Below, one piece after another: positions 24,390 to 45,039 of a stretch of 46,288 nucleotides of DNA. Every line of letters starts with the position of its first letter. Position 1 is the first letter of the stretch. A model generated the notes under the pieces. That model was not told the DNA's origin, ran no database searches, and worked only from the letters and a program-made list of their open reading frames with translations. The DNA is from Escherichia phage 2H10, in sequence record NC_049950.1; one strand, 5' to 3'. The position numbers and the translations under genes are program-made.

Positions 24390-24980
24390 TTATATGTCAG
24401 GTGTCTGAAGTTTTGCTTTGGCTCTTAAAATGGTTTGCCGCGAGGTTTTGAATTCCCGGGCAATGGCACTTATACTTACACCTGACTTAATCCGTTCGAA
24501 TACCACCTGTTTCTGTTCTTCATTTAACACAGGTGGTCGACCAAAACGTTTCCCTGCGCCCCGGGCTCTTACTATCCCGGAATGAGTGCGTTCAAGTAAA
24601 AGGTCTCGTTCAAATTCAGCGACTGCTGAAATTACTTGCATCATCATTTTTCCTGTTGGACTGGTCAGGTCAATGCCCCCCAATGCTAAGCAATGCACTC
24701 TGATACCTGTTTCGGTCAGTTGTTCCACTGTTTTCCTGATATCCATTGCATTACAACCAAGGCGATCCAGTTTTGTCACAATCAATTGATCACCACATTT
24801 CAGGCGAGCAAGCAACCGGTTAAAACCAGGACGCTCACTGGTTGCTGCTGAGCCGCTAATGTGTTCTTCGATTATTTGCTGAGGTTTGATTTTAAAACCT
24901 GCACTTTCGATTTCCCGGCGTTGATTTTCGGTGGTCTGATCCAGCGTTGATATCCGACAGTAAGCAAAAATTCGAGACAT
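24390..24980 (-). CDS. pin: Serine recombinase, Pin/Gin/Hin-type DNA invertase
   Basis: 196 aa, [20 protein letters not shown]... (catalytic Ser motif) with a C-terminal HTH. Recognised as PinR/PinQ-like. Convergent with tfa as in Rac. Confidence 0.9.
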
Positions 24981-25359
24981 AGTGAGACTCTATACGAAAT
25001 TGGTGTACATATCATAATGCATATCCAAAAATTATTTCGCTTATTATTGTACATATTTGTATGTATACGTTCGAAAATAAACGAATTCGGATGCAGTCCC
25101 GTAATTTTGGTGTAACCAAAAATCGATTTTTTGAAAAATGGCTTTAACTCGGTTTGTTTTTCGAACTCCGGGCGGACTCGAGGAAGACGAATAATAGTGT
25201 TGTATGTTATTTCAACCAGATTTTAAGTTGTTTGGTCGTGGAAAAGTGGAGCAAAATGTTGTTAAAGTGGAAAAATGGTAAAAAAAGTAGGTTGTTGCGG
25301 AATAACGTAGTTGTTGATATTTTTTTAATGCATTGAAAAATTATTTTTCAGGGGGGGTA

Positions 25360-25593
25360 TTACACTTTACCATTTAAATTTTGGTTGTCTTTAAGAACTG
25401 ATATCGCTGTTTGTAATAATTCTTTGTTATCCAGCCATGACTTTTTCTTTATGTTTCCTTCAATGTAATCAAGCAATGTTCTGGTATTGATAGGTCTTCC
25501 CTGTTTTGCTACTTCCACGACAGCATCTCCCAGGATAATTCTGACTTCAGGAAGCTGCGCAGGGAACCACTTTAGGGTGTCTTTTGATTTCAT
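25360..25593 (-). CDS. ynaE: YnaE/YdfK-family small protein (cold-shock-induced prophage gene family)
   Basis: MKSKDTLKWFPAQLPEVRIILGDAVVEVAKQGRPINTRTLLDYIEG... (77 aa from the internal Met). The ORF extends to 25626. Confidence 0.75.
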   Translation of the reverse strand: MKSKDTLKWFPAQLPEVRIILGDAVVEVAKQGRPINTRTLLDYIEGNIKKKSWLDNKELLQTAISVLKDNQNLNGKV

Positions 25594-25661
25594 GAAGATA
25601 TTCCTTAAAATATTATTGGTTTTCATTGCAATATTGTATGTCTGATTCAGGATATGTTGAC

Positions 25662-25775
25662 TTATACATCTGTTTTGTCCGGGTTATTGGATATGCCAAT
25701 CCCTAATTTTATTAGAGCATGACCAAAAATGCTGAATATGATAAGTAGTGAAGTGATTATCAGTATGCTGTTCAT
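25662..25775 (-). CDS. Candidate 37-aa single-pass membrane peptide
   Basis: Hand-translated (below the ORF-track cutoff): [41 protein letters not shown] lies 4 nt upstream of the ATG. It sits directly upstream of, and co-oriented with, the ynaE-like gene. Confidence 0.45.
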
Positions 25776-26091
25776 ATAGCCTCGAATTAGTATGGTGTTA
25801 TATATAATATAGTTGACAATTTTTATCCTGGGTGTTCTTAAAGTTCGTAGATGAACCCTGTAGTTTCAGGTATACAGGAATGCTTACAGATAGCGGCAAA
25901 AGTCAGGAGGTTAATGGCGCAAACTGAAGGGGGAGCTGCGAACTAACTTAGGTAGAGACTCTACACGGATTCGGTTTAAAAGTATACATAGATAACAATT
26001 TTTATCTGAAGAAGAAAAATATTAAGGTGATATGGTCATATATACTTTAATGCGGAAGAATGAATGTTATGAGAGTGCTGTATCTGAATGG

Positions 26092-26201: not shown

Positions 26202-26450
26202 TTAGTGAACAAACCACTCGTCAGCAGACTCCCAGGTATCTTTCAGAGTTTCCTGAACAAAAGTTTTAGCTGAATCTTTATCGGCGGTGCGCGTAACAGA
26301 AAGGCCATCGTTGCTGGTGGCTTTTACGATCACCTCTACATCGTCATAACGCTTACTGATGCGTCGAGTTAATTCTTCCTTTAATGCATCCACAGCACCG
26401 TTTGGCATTTTAGTCATTTTCTCTTTGGCTATGCAGATCTCAATACGCAT
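26202..26450 (-). CDS. dinI: DinI-family DNA-damage-inducible protein
   Basis: 82 aa, [11 protein letters not shown]...[23 protein letters not shown]...[10 protein letters not shown], typical DinI-fold sequence. SOS boxes lie upstream. Confidence 0.85.
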
Positions 26451-26534: not shown

Positions 26535-26952
26535 TGTACAAATGTTCTTTGGCTACAAATACACCTACTGATCATGTTCTGCTATGCTCTGATACCTCCA
26601 AAATGTACAATCAGCGGCATGAATTTTTCTTTGTACATATGATTGTACATAATCAAAGAGACAACAATTATGACAAGCCTTTTGGCCGCAGAGGTAGCGA
26701 AAAGAAGAACCTTTGCAATTATTTCTCACCCCAATAATTAATCCCAAATTAAAGCTCTTTTACTCTTTCAAAATCCTTTCAGTTAATTGAGGTCTAGTTA
26801 TATAACTCATTTAAATACATATGGTTATGTGGCTTCTTTAATTGAAAATTCTTTCATGTAACTTTAAATCGATCAGGTTGCTTTCATCAAAAATCTGTAC
26901 ATATGCTTGTACATAATGTACAAAGCAGCAGAGGTGTTTTGCGATTTGTACA
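26535..26952. repeat. Array of 8 TGTACA-core motifs flanking the attP core (candidate Int arm-type sites and/or operators)
   Basis: TGTACA at 26535, 26604, 26632, 26644 (left of core) and 26896, 26908, 26917, 26947 (right of core). Includes the perfect palindrome TTGTACATAATGTACAA at 26907-26923. Confidence 0.5.
26670..26741 (+). other. attP core region carrying a surrogate 5' end of host prfC (RF3)
   Basis: The short ORF [23 protein letters not shown] shares [14 protein letters not shown] with the N-terminus of E. coli RF3 ([28 protein letters not shown], from memory). It lies 220 nt upstream of int. Confidence 0.7.
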
Positions 26953-26961
26953 AGGTGAGTA

Positions 26962-28185
26962 ATGGCGCTGTCTGATGCGTGGTTGCGTTCAGTCGTTGGA
27001 AAGGAACGTGATAAGGTTTTGGTTAAATCCGATCGTGATGGTCTGTCTGTCAGAGTATCACCGAAAGGTCGCGTAGTGTTTCAATATCGTTATCAATGGG
27101 CAGGGAAAGGTGAGCGTCTTGATATCGGAACTTACCCGGCAACTGGATTAAAAGAGGCCAGAGAAGAAGTTATCCGTCTCCGTGGTGAACTCGAGTCAAA
27201 CCGTAATCCACGATTGGTCAAGCAGGCTGAAAAACGAAAAGCTACTGAAGCCATGACGGTAGAGTCTGTGATCCGTGCCTGGTATGAAGCATATTGTGTA
27301 AAAAATAAAAAGGGTTCTGAACAGATACTCCGCTCGTTTGAGCTGCACCTGTTCTCTAAAATCGGGAATATCCCTCACGATGCAGCTACATTGCATGATT
27401 GGTTAGAAGTCCTGGAGCCTCTTAGCACTAAGACTCCAGCAATAGCAGACCGATTGCTAATTAACGCAAAGCAGGCCCATGTCTGGGCGTATAAGAGAAA
27501 GCTTATTGAAACTCGCCCGCTGTCGGATATCACGGGTAAAGATATGGATATCCGTAAAGGTCAGAAGAAACGGTTTCTGACACACGATGAAATTAAAATT
27601 CTTTATGCTGCGATCGATGGCTCTAGAATGGTTCCCAAATACCGGGCCTTCATTAAACTATTACTGCATTTTGGTTGCCGTAGTTCGGAGCTAATTACTG
27701 CTAGGGTGGGTGATTTTGATTTCATAAATAAGGTATGGACTGTACCACCTGAACGACATAAGACAGGGGACATAACAGGCGAACCGCTAAAGCGGCCCAT
27801 TATTGAACCGGTTGAAGAGCTTATAAAATACGTTATCTCTATGAACAACGGTTCCGATATGCTTTTTACTAAGGAAGGAAGCAGGGAGCCAGTCGGTAGG
27901 ACATCATTACAGTCGCTGCCTTACAATTTAATGCAGTACGCGTGGCGGCGTTTAGGATATCAATTCCCTCATTGGTCTCTTCATGACTTGAGACGGACAG
28001 CACGAACAAATTTTTCTGATCTTACTGCGCCTCATATCGCAGAAATTATGCTTGGTCATAAGCTGCCAGGGGTATGGCAAGTTTATGATAAGAGCGATTA
28101 TCTAGAAGAACAGCGTAAAGCTTACCTGGCATGGTGGAAGAGGGTTGAATCGATTGTTAATTGTACTATCTCTGATTCAAACTGA
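26962..28185 (+). CDS. int: Tyrosine integrase, P4-type (N-terminal DUF4102-like arm-binding domain)
   Basis: 407 aa. N-terminus ...GLSVRVSPKGRVVFQYRYQWAGKGERLDIGTYP. C-terminal catalytic motifs are HDLRRTARTN, LGH and a Tyr in VYDKSDY. Confidence 0.9.
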   Translation: MALSDAWLRSVVGKERDKVLVKSDRDGLSVRVSPKGRVVFQYRYQWAGKGERLDIGTYPATGLKEAREEVIRLRGELESNRNPRLVKQAEKRKATEAMTVESVIRAWYEAYCVKNKKGSEQILRSFELHLFSKIGNIPHDAATLHDWLEVLEPLSTKTPAIADRLLINAKQAHVWAYKRKLIETRPLSDITGKDMDIRKGQKKRFLTHDEIKILYAAIDGSRMVPKYRAFIKLLLHFGCRSSELITARVGDFDFINKVWTVPPERHKTGDITGEPLKRPIIEPVEELIKYVISMNNGSDMLFTKEGSREPVGRTSLQSLPYNLMQYAWRRLGYQFPHWSLHDLRRTARTNFSDLTAPHIAEIMLGHKLPGVWQVYDKSDYLEEQRKAYLAWWKRVESIVNCTISDSN

Positions 28186-28264
28186 CGGTTTGTATCACCT
28201 GAACATAACCAAATCTCCTAGCACACTTTGAGCGAGATGTGAGCGTTAAGTTTACGCCATTGTG

Positions 28265-28292
28265 TTGACATAAGAGGGCACGGGTATAGATA
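28265..28292 (+). promoter_or_regulatory. Candidate sigma70 promoter for the 239-aa gene
   Basis: TTGACA, 16 nt, TAGATA. This would give a ~170-nt leader. Confidence 0.4.
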
Positions 28293-28470
28293 TCATCACT
28301 ATCCCTATGCCCCTAAATCGCTCCTGCTATTTGATAAATGCAGATGTTTACCACCAAATGTTTTTGATACTATAGGTTGATTCATGATTTACCTAGAAAC
28401 TTAGTTGTAACGAAAACTTCTTAACGGACACTATCTGGATAAAGTTAGTTTTTTATTTAAGAGGGTTAAC

Positions 28471-29190
28471 ATGTCAAAGTTAAAAAATGAACCATTAGTA
28501 AGGGTATCAGAAGAAGACGGAATAGAAATAAGGAAGATCCAATATCCAGATAATACGATAGAAAGAGTTTATAAGCAGAAAGGTGTAATATTACCACGAA
28601 TACCTTTAAAAGGCCGCTTTGTAGAACAATATGTGGCCTTACAGTTGCTGGATAAAGATCTTCGGAATGTTATTGGTTGGGAGAATATAATAAAAAACAT
28701 TTGTAATAACATTAATAGAGAACAACACTTTATTTATCCTGATTTAGAAAAGAATCTAATATTAAAGTCTTTATTTATATCAAAAGTTGTTACTTACGGT
28801 AAGTGTTTTACAGAGGCGAAAGGGCGTCGATTCACATTGCAGAGAAAGCATGTGCCAGAAAAATACAGAGATTTACATGATTCTATTATGAATGTTAGAC
28901 ATAACTTTGCTGCCCATAAAGGTGAATTTGAATATGATCAATGTGGCTTGGTTTTAATATTGCCGGGGACCAAGAAAAAAAGGTGCTATCATATTTTTTC
29001 AGAACTCAATCAAATAAATTATGGTAATAATGAGGAAGATGATGAACGTTTTTTTATGTTATATGATTCACTGCGTAAAGTCATTAAAGAAAAACGAGAT
29101 AAATTAATTGATAAAATATACGCTGAAAAGATTCATACTCAAACAATGGAGTATTGGTTGAGCCGAACAGGAAAAGAAACAGAGATTTAA
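28471..29190 (+). CDS. Unrecognised 239-aa protein with HEPN-like R-x5-H motif (candidate Abi/defence moron)
   Basis: RBS AGAGGG 5 nt before the ATG. Strongly AT-rich codons. Contains ...IMNVRHNFAAHKGE... (R-x5-H) after a helical segment. Lies between int and xis and converges on xis. Confidence 0.7.
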   Translation: MSKLKNEPLVRVSEEDGIEIRKIQYPDNTIERVYKQKGVILPRIPLKGRFVEQYVALQLLDKDLRNVIGWENIIKNICNNINREQHFIYPDLEKNLILKSLFISKVVTYGKCFTEAKGRRFTLQRKHVPEKYRDLHDSIMNVRHNFAAHKGEFEYDQCGLVLILPGTKKKRCYHIFSELNQINYGNNEEDDERFFMLYDSLRKVIKEKRDKLIDKIYAEKIHTQTMEYWLSRTGKETEI

Positions 29191-29386
29191 TTTGTTCAGT
29201 ATATAAAAGCTAATTTTTAAGGAGTAATTTTCAGATGATTAAAGCTGATTACATTGCGATAGGTACTCTACGACTAACTTTTCAACAAGAGTAAGGGGGT
29301 AATCAATTTTATTTGTATCAATGGTATGACATTTCTTGGCGATAATGTTTTGATCTTATCGATTCATGTCATATGGTCATTGGTAA

Positions 29387-29412
29387 CGTCCGCTCTTGTT
29401 AAAGAGTGGACG
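29387..29412 (+). terminator. Hairpin between the convergent 239-aa gene and xis
   Basis: CGTCCGCTCTTgttaAAGAGTGGACG (11 bp, one G-U), then ctcagatttggttt. The U-run is weak. Confidence 0.4.
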
Positions 29413-29472
29413 CTCAGATTTGGTTTGGCATCTAATCATAGATGTGTCAGCTCACATCTAAGCTAATACATA

Positions 29473-29667
29473 TTAATCAATCACTCCCGCAAATCTGTAA
29501 ATCTTGTGTGATGCCCATTTATTTGGGCAGGATTTAATATCAGGATCTGGAAAGTCAGGCCTGTATTTCTGGCCAGTTCTCCTGTTTACGCTGTTCCAGC
29601 GAAGAACTGTCGATACTGAAACACCACAGAAATCGGCGACTTGTTTAGTTGTCATTAAGTTGTTCAT
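29473..29667 (-). CDS. xis: AlpA/MerR-type excisionase-like HTH protein
   Basis: 64 aa, ...TTKQVADFCGVSVSTVLRWN...FPDPDIK..PNKW. Last gene of the early-left operon, next to int. TAATG overlap with the upstream gene. Confidence 0.7.
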   Translation of the reverse strand: MNNLMTTKQVADFCGVSVSTVLRWNSVNRRTGQKYRPDFPDPDIKSCPNKWASHKIYRFAGVID

Positions 29668-40861: not shown

Positions 40862-41074
40862 TCATGAAAGGTAAACATTGGCAGCTGAAGGGCCACGCAG
40901 ACCATTTATCCGGCAAAATTCCACGCGTAATCCGGTGGTAATTTCTTCTGCATCGCGGAGATTGAGCGCTGAAACATGAAGCTGGACATCGATACGACCA
41001 TCGGATGGGGTGATAAGACCCTTGCCGCTTTTGCCGTCAAAGGTTTTGACAATTCCTGTCATTTTACGGGACAA
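40862..41074 (-). CDS. cspF: CspF/CspH-type cold-shock-domain protein
   Basis: 70 aa, [27 protein letters not shown]...[19 protein letters not shown]. Confidence 0.9.
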
Positions 41075-41374: not shown

Positions 41375-41590
41375 ATGTCAAATAAAATGACTGGTTTAGT
41401 AAAATGGTTTAACGCTGATAAAGGTTTTGGCTTTATTTCTCCTGTTGATGGTAGTAAAGATGTGTTTGTGCATTTTTCTGCGATTCAGAATGATAATTTT
41501 CGAACCTTATTTGAAGGTCAAAAGGTTACCTTCTCTGTAGAGAGTGGTGCTAAAGGTCCTGCAGCAGCAAATGTCATAATTACTGATTAA
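41375..41590 (+). CDS. cspB: Cold shock protein CspB
   Basis: 71 aa, [53 protein letters not shown]... Confidence 0.95.
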
Positions 41591-42342: not shown

Positions 42343-42558
42343 ATGAAATCAATGGATAAGTTAACAACAGGTATCGCCTATGGCACATCGGCTGGTAATG
42401 CTGGTTTCTGGGCATTGCAGTTACTCGATAAAGTAACTCCGTCACAGTGGGCTGCAATCGGTGTGCTGGGTAGTCTGGTTTTTGGCCTGCTGACGTATCT
42501 GACAAACCTTTATTTCAAGATTAAAGAAGACAGGCGTAAGGTTGCGAGAAGAGAGTAA
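42343..42558 (+). CDS. essQ: Class II pinholin, phage 21 S type, with dual-start motif
   Basis: [26 protein letters not shown]...[15 protein letters not shown], 71 aa. Met1-Lys-Ser-Met4 as in S21 71/68. Confidence 0.9.
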
Positions 42559-42562
42559 TCCA

Positions 42563-43114
42563 ATGACACAAGACTATGAACTGGTTGTGAAAGGAGTCCG
42601 CAATTTTGAGAATAAAGTGGCGGTAACTGTAGCCTTACGGGACAAAAAACGCTTTGACGGTGAAATTTTTGACCTGGACATCTCGCTGGACCGTGTTGAA
42701 GGTGCCGCGCTTGAGTTTTATGAGGCAGCAGCGAGAAGGAGCATCAGACAGGTCTTCCTGGATGTTGCTGCCGGGTTATGTGAAGGGGATGAGCTGTCGC
42801 CGGAAAAGCGCCCCGTAATTTTAGAGGCGCAGAATGTGTGGATAACCTACAAAGGAAAGCTACCGGGAAGAATTACTGGTTCTCTGAAGACGCCACCGAC
42901 GGCATTGCGGTCAGAAAAAGATGATATTGAATCGCCCATTGAAAAACTGGAGGGCAGCGTCGCTGATCTGAATAAAAAATTGTCGGTGCTGATTCCTTCT
43001 GAAGATGAAAAAAAACGCCGCGATGAGCAGTTTGCGGCGTTTTACGATTATTGCATTGAAGTTACTCGCAGGAATTTTGTGAAGATTTTTGAGGAGGGTA
43101 AATCTCTTCAGTAA
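42563..43114 (+). CDS. DUF1327 (YdfR-like N-terminus) protein with a long unrelated C-terminal extension
   Basis: MTQDYELVVKGVRNFENKVAVTVAL...ALEFYEAAARRSIRQVFL matches K-12 YdfR from memory. 183 aa here versus ~100 aa. Confidence 0.65.
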   Translation: MTQDYELVVKGVRNFENKVAVTVALRDKKRFDGEIFDLDISLDRVEGAALEFYEAAARRSIRQVFLDVAAGLCEGDELSPEKRPVILEAQNVWITYKGKLPGRITGSLKTPPTALRSEKDDIESPIEKLEGSVADLNKKLSVLIPSEDEKKRRDEQFAAFYDYCIEVTRRNFVKIFEEGKSLQ

Positions 43115-43435: not shown

Positions 43436-44463
<1,028 letters not shown>

Positions 44464-44826
44464 ATTAATATTAAATCGGATTATTTTTAGCGCTGAATGT
44501 GAAATTTAAATAAAAAGGACTCTTCCATGAGTCAAAATTCTTGAAATCTTAAGGGTAAGATAAAAGGTCATTAGACAGAATGACACGTTTTATTAATAAA
44601 TAAAGCTATTGTTTCATTCGTGTGTTTTTCTTTACAAAAGTAATCCTTGCTATGGTTGGTTAATCATGCGTTAATGGTGTTCTGGTTTGTTACAAAATTA
44701 TCTGAAGCAGTCATTGTTATAATTTTATTATTTGTACCTCTTGAGATTTCCTTGTTGGTTTTTCTCTCTGATATTTTTTTTCGGACCATTCTGCCCAAGG
44801 GCTAACTTCTTCAAAAGGTAATAATG

Positions 44827-45039
44827 ATGTCTAACAAAATGACTGGTTTAGTGAAATGGTTTAACCCTGAAAAAGGTTTTGGTTTCATCACGCCGAAAGA
44901 TGGTAGCAAAGATGTGTTTGTCCATTTCTCAGCTATTCAGAGCAACGATTTCAAAACGTTAACTGAGAATCAGGAAGTCGAATTTGGTATTGAGAACGGA
45001 CCTAAAGGCCCCGCGGCTGTTCATGTAGTGGCACTTTGA
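44827..45039 (+). CDS. cspI: Cold shock protein CspI
   Basis: [70 protein letters not shown], 70 aa. Confidence 0.95.

Follow-up and report, generated by a model that had tools for sequence, protein, structure and literature searches.

Between the integrase gene (int) and an excisionase-like (xis-like) gene of Escherichia phage 2H10 (NC_049950.1) lies a single cargo gene, whose 239-amino-acid (aa) product is analyzed here in the context of the whole 46,288-nucleotide record (the window). The gene is real, selectively constrained, compositionally foreign and swappable, and its product belongs to a large family that Pfam, NCBIfam and PADLOC do not contain and that comprises at least 900 clusters (50% identity). 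Judging from a nearly invariant Rx5H motif and a predicted four-helix bundle, the family, which is distinct in its extra beta elements, very probably belongs to the HEPN architecture or converges closely on it. By analogy with HepS and Tha, we rate at about an even chance the further proposal that these proteins are a new family of solo HEPN abortive-infection ribonucleases (RNases), expressed from the prophage during lysogeny.

A large protein family without annotation

Searches of the 239-aa protein against Pfam, NCBIfam and PADLOC (PADLOC-DB 2.0) returned no match, and PHROG 8440, which matched it from end to end (E = 1.6e-144), is a family of unknown function. The statement in a first-pass annotation of the window that the product matches no nameable family was thus borne out. 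The literature and its supplementary tables likewise held no record for the accession, the PHROG identifier or signature peptides of the protein. A word-indexed protein search retrieved only 25 relatives, all from Enterobacterales, and the same type of search with a broad alignment added almost no further members. When 1.84 billion cluster representatives (50% identity clusters) were searched exhaustively with a profile, 924 clusters matched at E ≤ 1e-3, 397 of them at E ≤ 1e-10. Among the best 150 of the 924 clusters, most proteins were 220–260 aa long and most aligned over most of the profile. Its range extends to environmental metagenomes, filamentous phages of marine Vibrio and conjugative elements. 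Conservation was read from a family alignment of 109 diverse members with 19–54% identity to the query. No second family member was found within the window.

Conservation of the Rx5H motif

The first-pass annotation had pointed to an R-x5-H element within IMNVRHNFAAHKGE, and this motif, R143-H-N-F-A-A-H149, is present. As a lone match it is at chance level: in 5000 shuffles of the same composition, the probability of at least one Rx4-6H match in a single protein was 0.78, and a second match in the query, R120-H127, is not conserved. Because chance alone predicts such a match in a protein of this kind, the motif carries no weight by itself and is meaningful only because it is conserved in homologues. 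Arginine 143 is retained in all 109 members of the family alignment and H149 in 108, accompanied by A148 (104/109) and G151 (106/109), which settles in the affirmative whether the R and H are conserved among homologues. Residue 144 is polar throughout (H in 61 members, N in 45 and D in 3), giving the family motif R-[HND]-x3-A-H-x-G, located where helix 3 of a predicted four-helix bundle ends. Further invariant or nearly invariant positions are D63, W70, Y109, K111, F113, G118, R119, H136 and E156, of which D63, in the context E61-K-D-L-R65, is kept in 108 of the 109 members.

Predicted structure

An AlphaFold2 model of the query (m65bb04c2e76a), computed from 22 homologues, reached a pLDDT (predicted local distance difference test) score of 86.5 and a predicted template modeling (pTM) score of 0.76. 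The model contains the four-helix core that the first-pass annotation had proposed to look for, preceded by an N-terminal beta subdomain (Table 1). An 18-residue loop (residues 112–129) between helices 2 and 3 carries the invariant G118-R119, and a beta-hairpin insert with strands at 157–163 and 174–180 is predicted ahead of helix 4. A second, independent model, of metagenomic member P0129 (21% identical to the query; pLDDT 86.8, pTM 0.82), has the same order of elements, the N-terminal beta element included, and places R140 at the end of helix 3 (residues 127–144) and H146 just beyond it. The motif had been described as following a long amphipathic helix, NLILKSLFISKVVTYGKCF. That segment (residues 92–111) is predicted to be helix 2, and the motif ends helix 3 (residues 130–148); its helical setting was recognized correctly and the helix was misassigned.

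HEPN domains are defined by a four-helix up-and-down bundle with frequent inserts between helices 2 and 3, and by a conserved Rx4-6H motif in which the arginine is followed by a polar residue, N, D or H (PMC3710099). In established HEPN enzymology, on which the mechanism proposed below is modeled, catalysis is metal-independent, with the histidine acting as general base and the arginine stabilizing the transition state. The active site is composed across a dimer (PMC3710099). The four-helix bundle, the insert between helices 2 and 3, the placement of the motif where helix 3 ends and the polar residue after the arginine were all found in the family described here.

A variable cargo cassette between int and xis

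The interval from the int stop codon to the stop codon of the convergent 64-aa xis-like open reading frame (ORF), positions 28,186–29,472, contains one substantial ORF. A single gene between int and the xis-like gene, convergent with the latter, had been proposed, and the ORF list and Pfam scan agree. Its AT-richness, judged earlier by eye, was also confirmed: the G+C content of the ORF is 0.312 (0.254 at third codon positions) versus 0.503 for the whole window, and no other 720-bp stretch in the 46 kb is lower. The G+C content of the whole interval is 0.333.

A survey of E. coli prophages that share the int and xis-like flanks established the interval as a variable cargo hotspot, as had been conjectured. 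In prophages with different cargo, similarity to the window is lost at 28,185, 28,216 or 28,236 on the left and regained at 29,385, 29,388 or 29,451 on the right; these break points therefore delimit the cassette given in Table 1. Including the present gene, at least four alternative AT-rich single genes occupy the site. The three alternative cargo genes (G+C 0.30–0.34) had no match in Pfam or PADLOC. The xis-like ORF is 94–97% identical in prophages with unrelated cargo and, because it is kept with other cargo, belongs to the phage backbone and is not a cognate partner of the gene studied here.

Distribution in E. coli and selection

Of 5426 complete E. coli genomes, 71 carry the same DNA at 97.5–100% identity, each in a single copy. 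All 71 copies are chromosomal and labeled as a hypothetical protein (WP_000040219.1), and the carriers include avian pathogenic E. coli (APEC), Shiga toxin-producing E. coli (STEC) and human isolates. E. coli BEN2908 carries 100% identical DNA in the order yjjG, prfC 5′ fragment, int, cargo gene and early-left genes. In the window, a short ORF just upstream of int (26,643–26,741, plus strand) encodes ...EVAKRRTFAIISHP..., which we take to resemble the N-terminus of release factor RF3 (PrfC). Its presence is consistent with the phage supplying a substitute 5′ end of prfC at attP, and it suggests that the gene order of the window is that of the phage (excised or permuted), not that of the prophage.

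Among orthologues with 75–97% protein identity, the ratio of nonsynonymous to synonymous substitution rates (dN/dS) was 0.11–0.18, indicating purifying selection. The cargo ORF was intact in 16 of the 18 loci examined and frameshifted in two (L024 and L025), and one E. coli genome has an IS1 insertion. An apparent allele swap in L025, in which the protein is 65% identical and the flanks are identical, proved to be a double frameshift in A7/A8 homopolymer runs. The corresponding A-runs lie within the ORF at 28,690–28,697 and 28,973–28,981, and frameshifts at these sites could represent real inactivation, sequencing error or a slippage-prone switch.

Relatives in other mobile elements

Four independent loci of 186/P2-like prophages (Enterobacter, Citrobacter and two read assemblies) have a relative of the cargo gene directly after int, overlapping it by up to 20 nt or separated from it by up to 34 nt. 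The genes form a co-directional array consisting of a helix-turn-helix (HTH) repressor, Flk_N, DUF8087 (absent in L002) and int, followed by the relative, which abuts the prophage end, marked by host DNA in two loci and by the contig end in two. Judging from the biology of P2 and 186, this repressor-int operon would be expected to be transcribed in lysogens. This interval between integrase and att was recently reported to be a minor defense hotspot of P2-like prophages (PMC13586616).

Relatives also occur in quite different settings. One from Cronobacter is located at the end of a lambdoid prophage, after tail-fiber and umuDC-like genes, and another adjoins an icd fragment. A distant paralogue of 252 aa and 29% identity is encoded on the E. 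coli plasmid pHNAH212872-2 (NZ_CP104632.1; L040:5905–6663), a lambdoid phage-plasmid with early genes similar to those of the window, in a slot between Rz and HNH/terS. A relative with 28% identity in a 10.9-kb Vibrio filamentous prophage (Tubulavirales; PQ189351.1; L039:2670–3407) adjoins genes related to insertion sequences and was labeled an endonuclease by its depositor. A conjugative element carries a relative in its cargo region, beside a Schlafen-like ATPase and an SNase. Among the IMG/VR prophage contigs, the relative lies within about 0–4 kb of the contig end in most loci. Across about a dozen distinct contexts, no conserved neighbor, MNT or other, was found, and for this reason the protein is taken to work alone.

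Strength of the HEPN assignment

Several observations weigh against a HEPN RNase active in defense. The second acidic residue of HEPN domains (Ex3[KR]) is usually on helix 2 near the active site, and the conserved acid here, D63 in E-K-D-L-R, is on helix 1. A fold comparison of the kind the first-pass annotation had suggested, with Foldseek against PDB and BFVD, returned nothing significant, and profile searches of PDB sequences with the 22- and 109-sequence profiles were negative. When the query, six consensus sequences and the 109 members were compared with Pfam, only sub-threshold matches to HEPN_AbiU2 recurred. That this is the one Pfam family to recur (in 5 of the 109 members, with a best E of 0.0022) speaks for the HEPN link, but one weak alignment to it (E = 1.1; 9.1 bits for a consensus) does not cover the motif region. 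An NCBIfam scan of the members gave no coherent signal, and a PADLOC scan of the 109 members yielded only scattered, unrelated single matches. For the query itself, the HMM search against HEPN/Abi and defense profiles (Pfam, PADLOC) that had been recommended produced nothing significant. At the hotspot, none of the alternative cargo genes is a recognized defense gene, so there is no guilt by association. The earlier idea of a HEPN-type nuclease thus stands on the conserved motif and its placement in a four-helix bundle, and a significant match to a known HEPN family did not materialize. The HEPN link is accordingly weaker than the motif suggests, and we infer formal homology, as opposed to resemblance.

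If the bundle were not HEPN, its conserved R, H, Y, K and E residues could make up another kind of active or binding site, for example that of a metal-binding DinB-like hydrolase or of a nucleotide- or NAD-directed enzyme, or the protein could be a non-enzymatic superinfection-exclusion or regulatory factor. The empty fold and profile searches leave room for such a protein, and the HEPN-like placement of a nearly invariant R and H speaks against it; we consider it rather unlikely.

Proposed function and alternatives

Under the proposal of a solo abortive-infection RNase, the lysogen would produce a cytoplasmic, single-protein HEPN-type ribonuclease that, by analogy with HepS and Tha, would be held inactive in an oligomer. 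A component of an infecting phage would be sensed via the N-terminal beta subdomain and the beta-hairpin insert, upon which two copies of the Rx5H motif (R143 and H149, with H/N144 assisting) would come together to form a composite RNase site that needs no metal. By cutting tRNA, rRNA or mRNA, the enzyme would then halt translation and abort the infection, protecting the lysogen population and the prophage. We infer the RNase activity, dimerization, trigger and defense phenotype from the fold, the motif and the genomic position. The N-terminal strands and the hairpin directly after the motif are the leading candidates for a sensing or regulatory surface, and the N-terminal subdomain may alternatively serve in oligomerization. 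Somewhat short of an even chance, in our estimation, is the fuller idea that a HEPN-like bundle has been fused to its own beta-sheet sensor, built from the N-terminal strands and the hairpin, creating a one-gene sense-and-kill cassette that moves among lambdoid, P2-like and filamentous phages and conjugative elements. A more radical variant of this idea is that D63, Y109, K111, R119, H136, R143, H149 and E156 may form an active site for a non-RNA substrate, which would be new effector chemistry on a HEPN-like scaffold.

The best functional analogue is HepS of the Salmonella prophage Gifsy-1, a solo, tetrameric protein that is activated by a tail-tip protein and cleaves tRNA anticodon loops (PMC13043305). 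Like the protein described here, it is a single small HEPN-motif protein that a prophage carries as cargo, has neither a partner nor an inhibitor gene and is presumably kept inactive until a trigger arrives. The two differ in the spacing of the motif, in size, in extra domains and in their place in the prophage, and HepS has no detectable similarity to the present family. Tha-1 and Tha-2, from Staphylococcus aureus phage 80alpha and its relatives, constitute an int-proximal HEPN defense activated by a tail protein (PMC11087260). Tha has 301 aa with a C-terminal HEPN domain and the motif RNSIMH (Rx4H), and requires the inhibitor Ith, a mis-annotated xis (PMC11087260). The two systems are alike in that a HEPN-type gene lies in an int-proximal lysogeny module beside a gene called xis, but no co-varying small inhibitor is found here and the xis-like ORF is kept with other cargo. 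The xis-like gene was considered as an inhibitor of the Ith type and ruled out, as it is retained beside unrelated cargo.

The HEPN_AbiU2 family (PF18734; AbiUii of Lactococcus) resembles the present one in its association with abortive infection, its conserved Rx4-6H and the recurring weak matches; however, no member reaches the gathering score of 26.8 bits and the query has no match. AbiUii reduces the resistance mediated by AbiUi and confers none itself (PMC13064643). The HEPN-MNT toxins (PDB 7ae2, 5yep and 1ylm) and a HEPN protein from an integron cassette (3jrt) have 125–166 aa and Rx4H, most of them beside an MNT antitoxin, whereas the family described here has about 240 aa, extra beta elements and no MNT neighbor in the contexts sampled. 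The family is best described as a new, undescribed family of solo prophage HEPN-type effectors that is not HepS, Tha/Ith, HEPN-MNT or, by threshold, AbiU2.

A HEPN-type RNase could also act outside anti-phage defense, either as a selfish toxin or addiction module that stabilizes the prophage or as a nuclease for the phage's own cycle or against functions of the host or of satellites, in counter-defense or host takeover. Such a role would account equally for the motif and the fold, but an addiction module is disfavored by the lack of any conserved antitoxin-like partner in the contexts sampled, given that the small downstream ORF is not conserved and that the xis-like gene is backbone. For a nuclease of the phage's own cycle, the gene's place in the lysogenic operon of 186/P2-like prophages points to expression in the lysogen and not during lytic growth, and these alternatives together appear distinctly unlikely. 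A lysogenic-conversion or virulence factor acting on the bacterial or animal host would suit an AT-rich moron at a prophage edge that APEC, STEC and human isolates carry. The translation shows no evident signal peptide or membrane segment, however, and the occurrence of the family in metagenomes, marine Vibrio filamentous phages and conjugative elements misfits a host-specific role, which renders this explanation highly improbable. The first-pass notion of a cargo gene for lysogenic conversion or anti-phage activity retains its location, foreign composition and single-gene cassette; the convergent terminators that it invoked do not hold up, and the promoter is weak.

Flanking features of the cargo gene

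Table 1. Features of the int-xis interval and its alternative cargo. Positions are those of the window unless a locus from another E. coli prophage is named.
Feature	Position	Strand	Description
Cargo coding sequence	28471-29190	+	Solo HEPN-like protein of 239 aa; same sequence as WP_000040219.1, a hypothetical protein; from ORF list
Shine-Dalgarno AAGAGGG	28459-28465	+	5 nt before cargo ATG; read from sequence
N-terminal beta subdomain	28495-28611	+	Residues 9-47; AlphaFold2 strands 9-15, 18-24 and 30-36; pLDDT > 90
Four-helix HEPN-like core	28615-29133	+	Predicted H1 49-79, H2 92-111, loop 112-129, H3 130-148, hairpin insert 157-180, H4 188-221
Putative catalytic Rx5H motif	28897-28917	+	R143-H-N-F-A-A-H149, within IMNVRHNFAAHKGE
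Variable cargo cassette	~28237-29385		Comparison with E. coli prophages sharing int and xis-like flanks
Tyrosine integrase (int)	26962-28185	+	Left flank, same direction as cargo; Pfam Phage_integrase, Arm-DNA-bind_3, Phage_int_M
xis-like ORF	29473-29667	-	64-aa HTH protein (excisionase-like); right flank, convergent, backbone; HTH_17 E = 1.3e-4, below Pfam cut-off
Candidate sigma-70 promoter	28265-28292	+	TTGACA 28265-28270, 16-nt spacer, TAGATA 28287-28292; weak; read from sequence
19-codon ORF	29235-29294	+	Inside cassette; preceded by AAGGAG 29219-29224; nothing supports gene status
Strong hairpin	29388-29413		11-bp GC-rich stem, GTTA loop, no U-tract; exactly at right cassette boundary; from folding
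Second, weaker hairpin	29439-29460		8-bp stem, no U-tract; directly after xis-like stop codon; backbone
Alternative cargo, 331 aa	L041:1564-2559	-	Opposite strand; hypothetical
Alternative cargo, 413 aa	L042:1385-2626	+	Hypothetical
Alternative cargo, 342 aa	L043:1490-2518	+	Hypothetical

The cargo gene had been credited with a promoter of its own. The hexamers and their spacing are as described, with the candidate -35 element just inside the left edge of the cassette, and the strength is in doubt, as the -10 element agrees with TATAAT in just 3 of its 6 bases, the terminal T being absent, and a consensus promoter scan of the region called no promoter on the plus strand. The leader is 98–100% identical across all E. 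coli loci, and because of this near-identity its conservation is uninformative on the promoter.

Downstream of the cargo gene, a scan for intrinsic terminators called no canonical terminator. The convergent terminators proposed earlier correspond to two hairpins that are non-canonical and part of the phage backbone, not of the cassette; the stronger one is common to the alternative-cargo loci L041 and L042, identifying it as a backbone element 3′ of the xis-like gene. The minus strand of the trailer (29,385–29,470) folds unusually well (z = -5.0 versus shuffles), and this structured region could serve in processing or sib-like retroregulation, or it could mark a boundary at which cassettes are exchanged by recombination. 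An Rfam search of the leader and trailer found no structured RNA.

The 19-codon ORF with its AAGGAG, put forward as a possible partner peptide, exists only in loci whose surrounding DNA is 95–100% identical, and among these it is frameshifted in L020. It is absent from the Cronobacter locus, the locus with 75% identity and more distant loci. With its absence from all diverged loci and the frameshift, a role as a partner is not supported.

Other loci in the window

A second AT-rich island (24,900–26,000; G+C 0.32–0.36) holds an 88-aa ORF (25,360–25,626, minus strand) and is flanked by a Pin/Gin-type invertase gene (24,390–24,980, minus) and a DinI-like gene (26,202–26,450, minus). A 190-aa ORF (42,542–43,114, plus) occupies a typical moron slot between a presumed holin gene (42,343–42,558) and a presumed endolysin gene (43,436–43,969), both so named by position. 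The late region contains three cold-shock-protein-like genes (40,862–41,074, minus; 41,375–41,590, plus; 44,824–45,039, plus), equivalents of which are annotated as cspF and cspB beside the BEN2908 prophage.

Implications

One more HEPN cargo gene would not surprise a specialist, but this family is large, unannotated and cleanly testable. If the proposal holds, it would mark the gap between int and xis in prfC-integrating E. coli prophages as a discovery hotspot, with at least three further AT-rich genes that have no assigned function. The protein would also be a compact system of one gene in which to examine how a nuclease detects an infection and fires with neither partner nor inhibitor. As a functional solo HEPN defense, it would represent a widespread family that is labeled as hypothetical protein and missed by tools of the DefenseFinder and PADLOC type.

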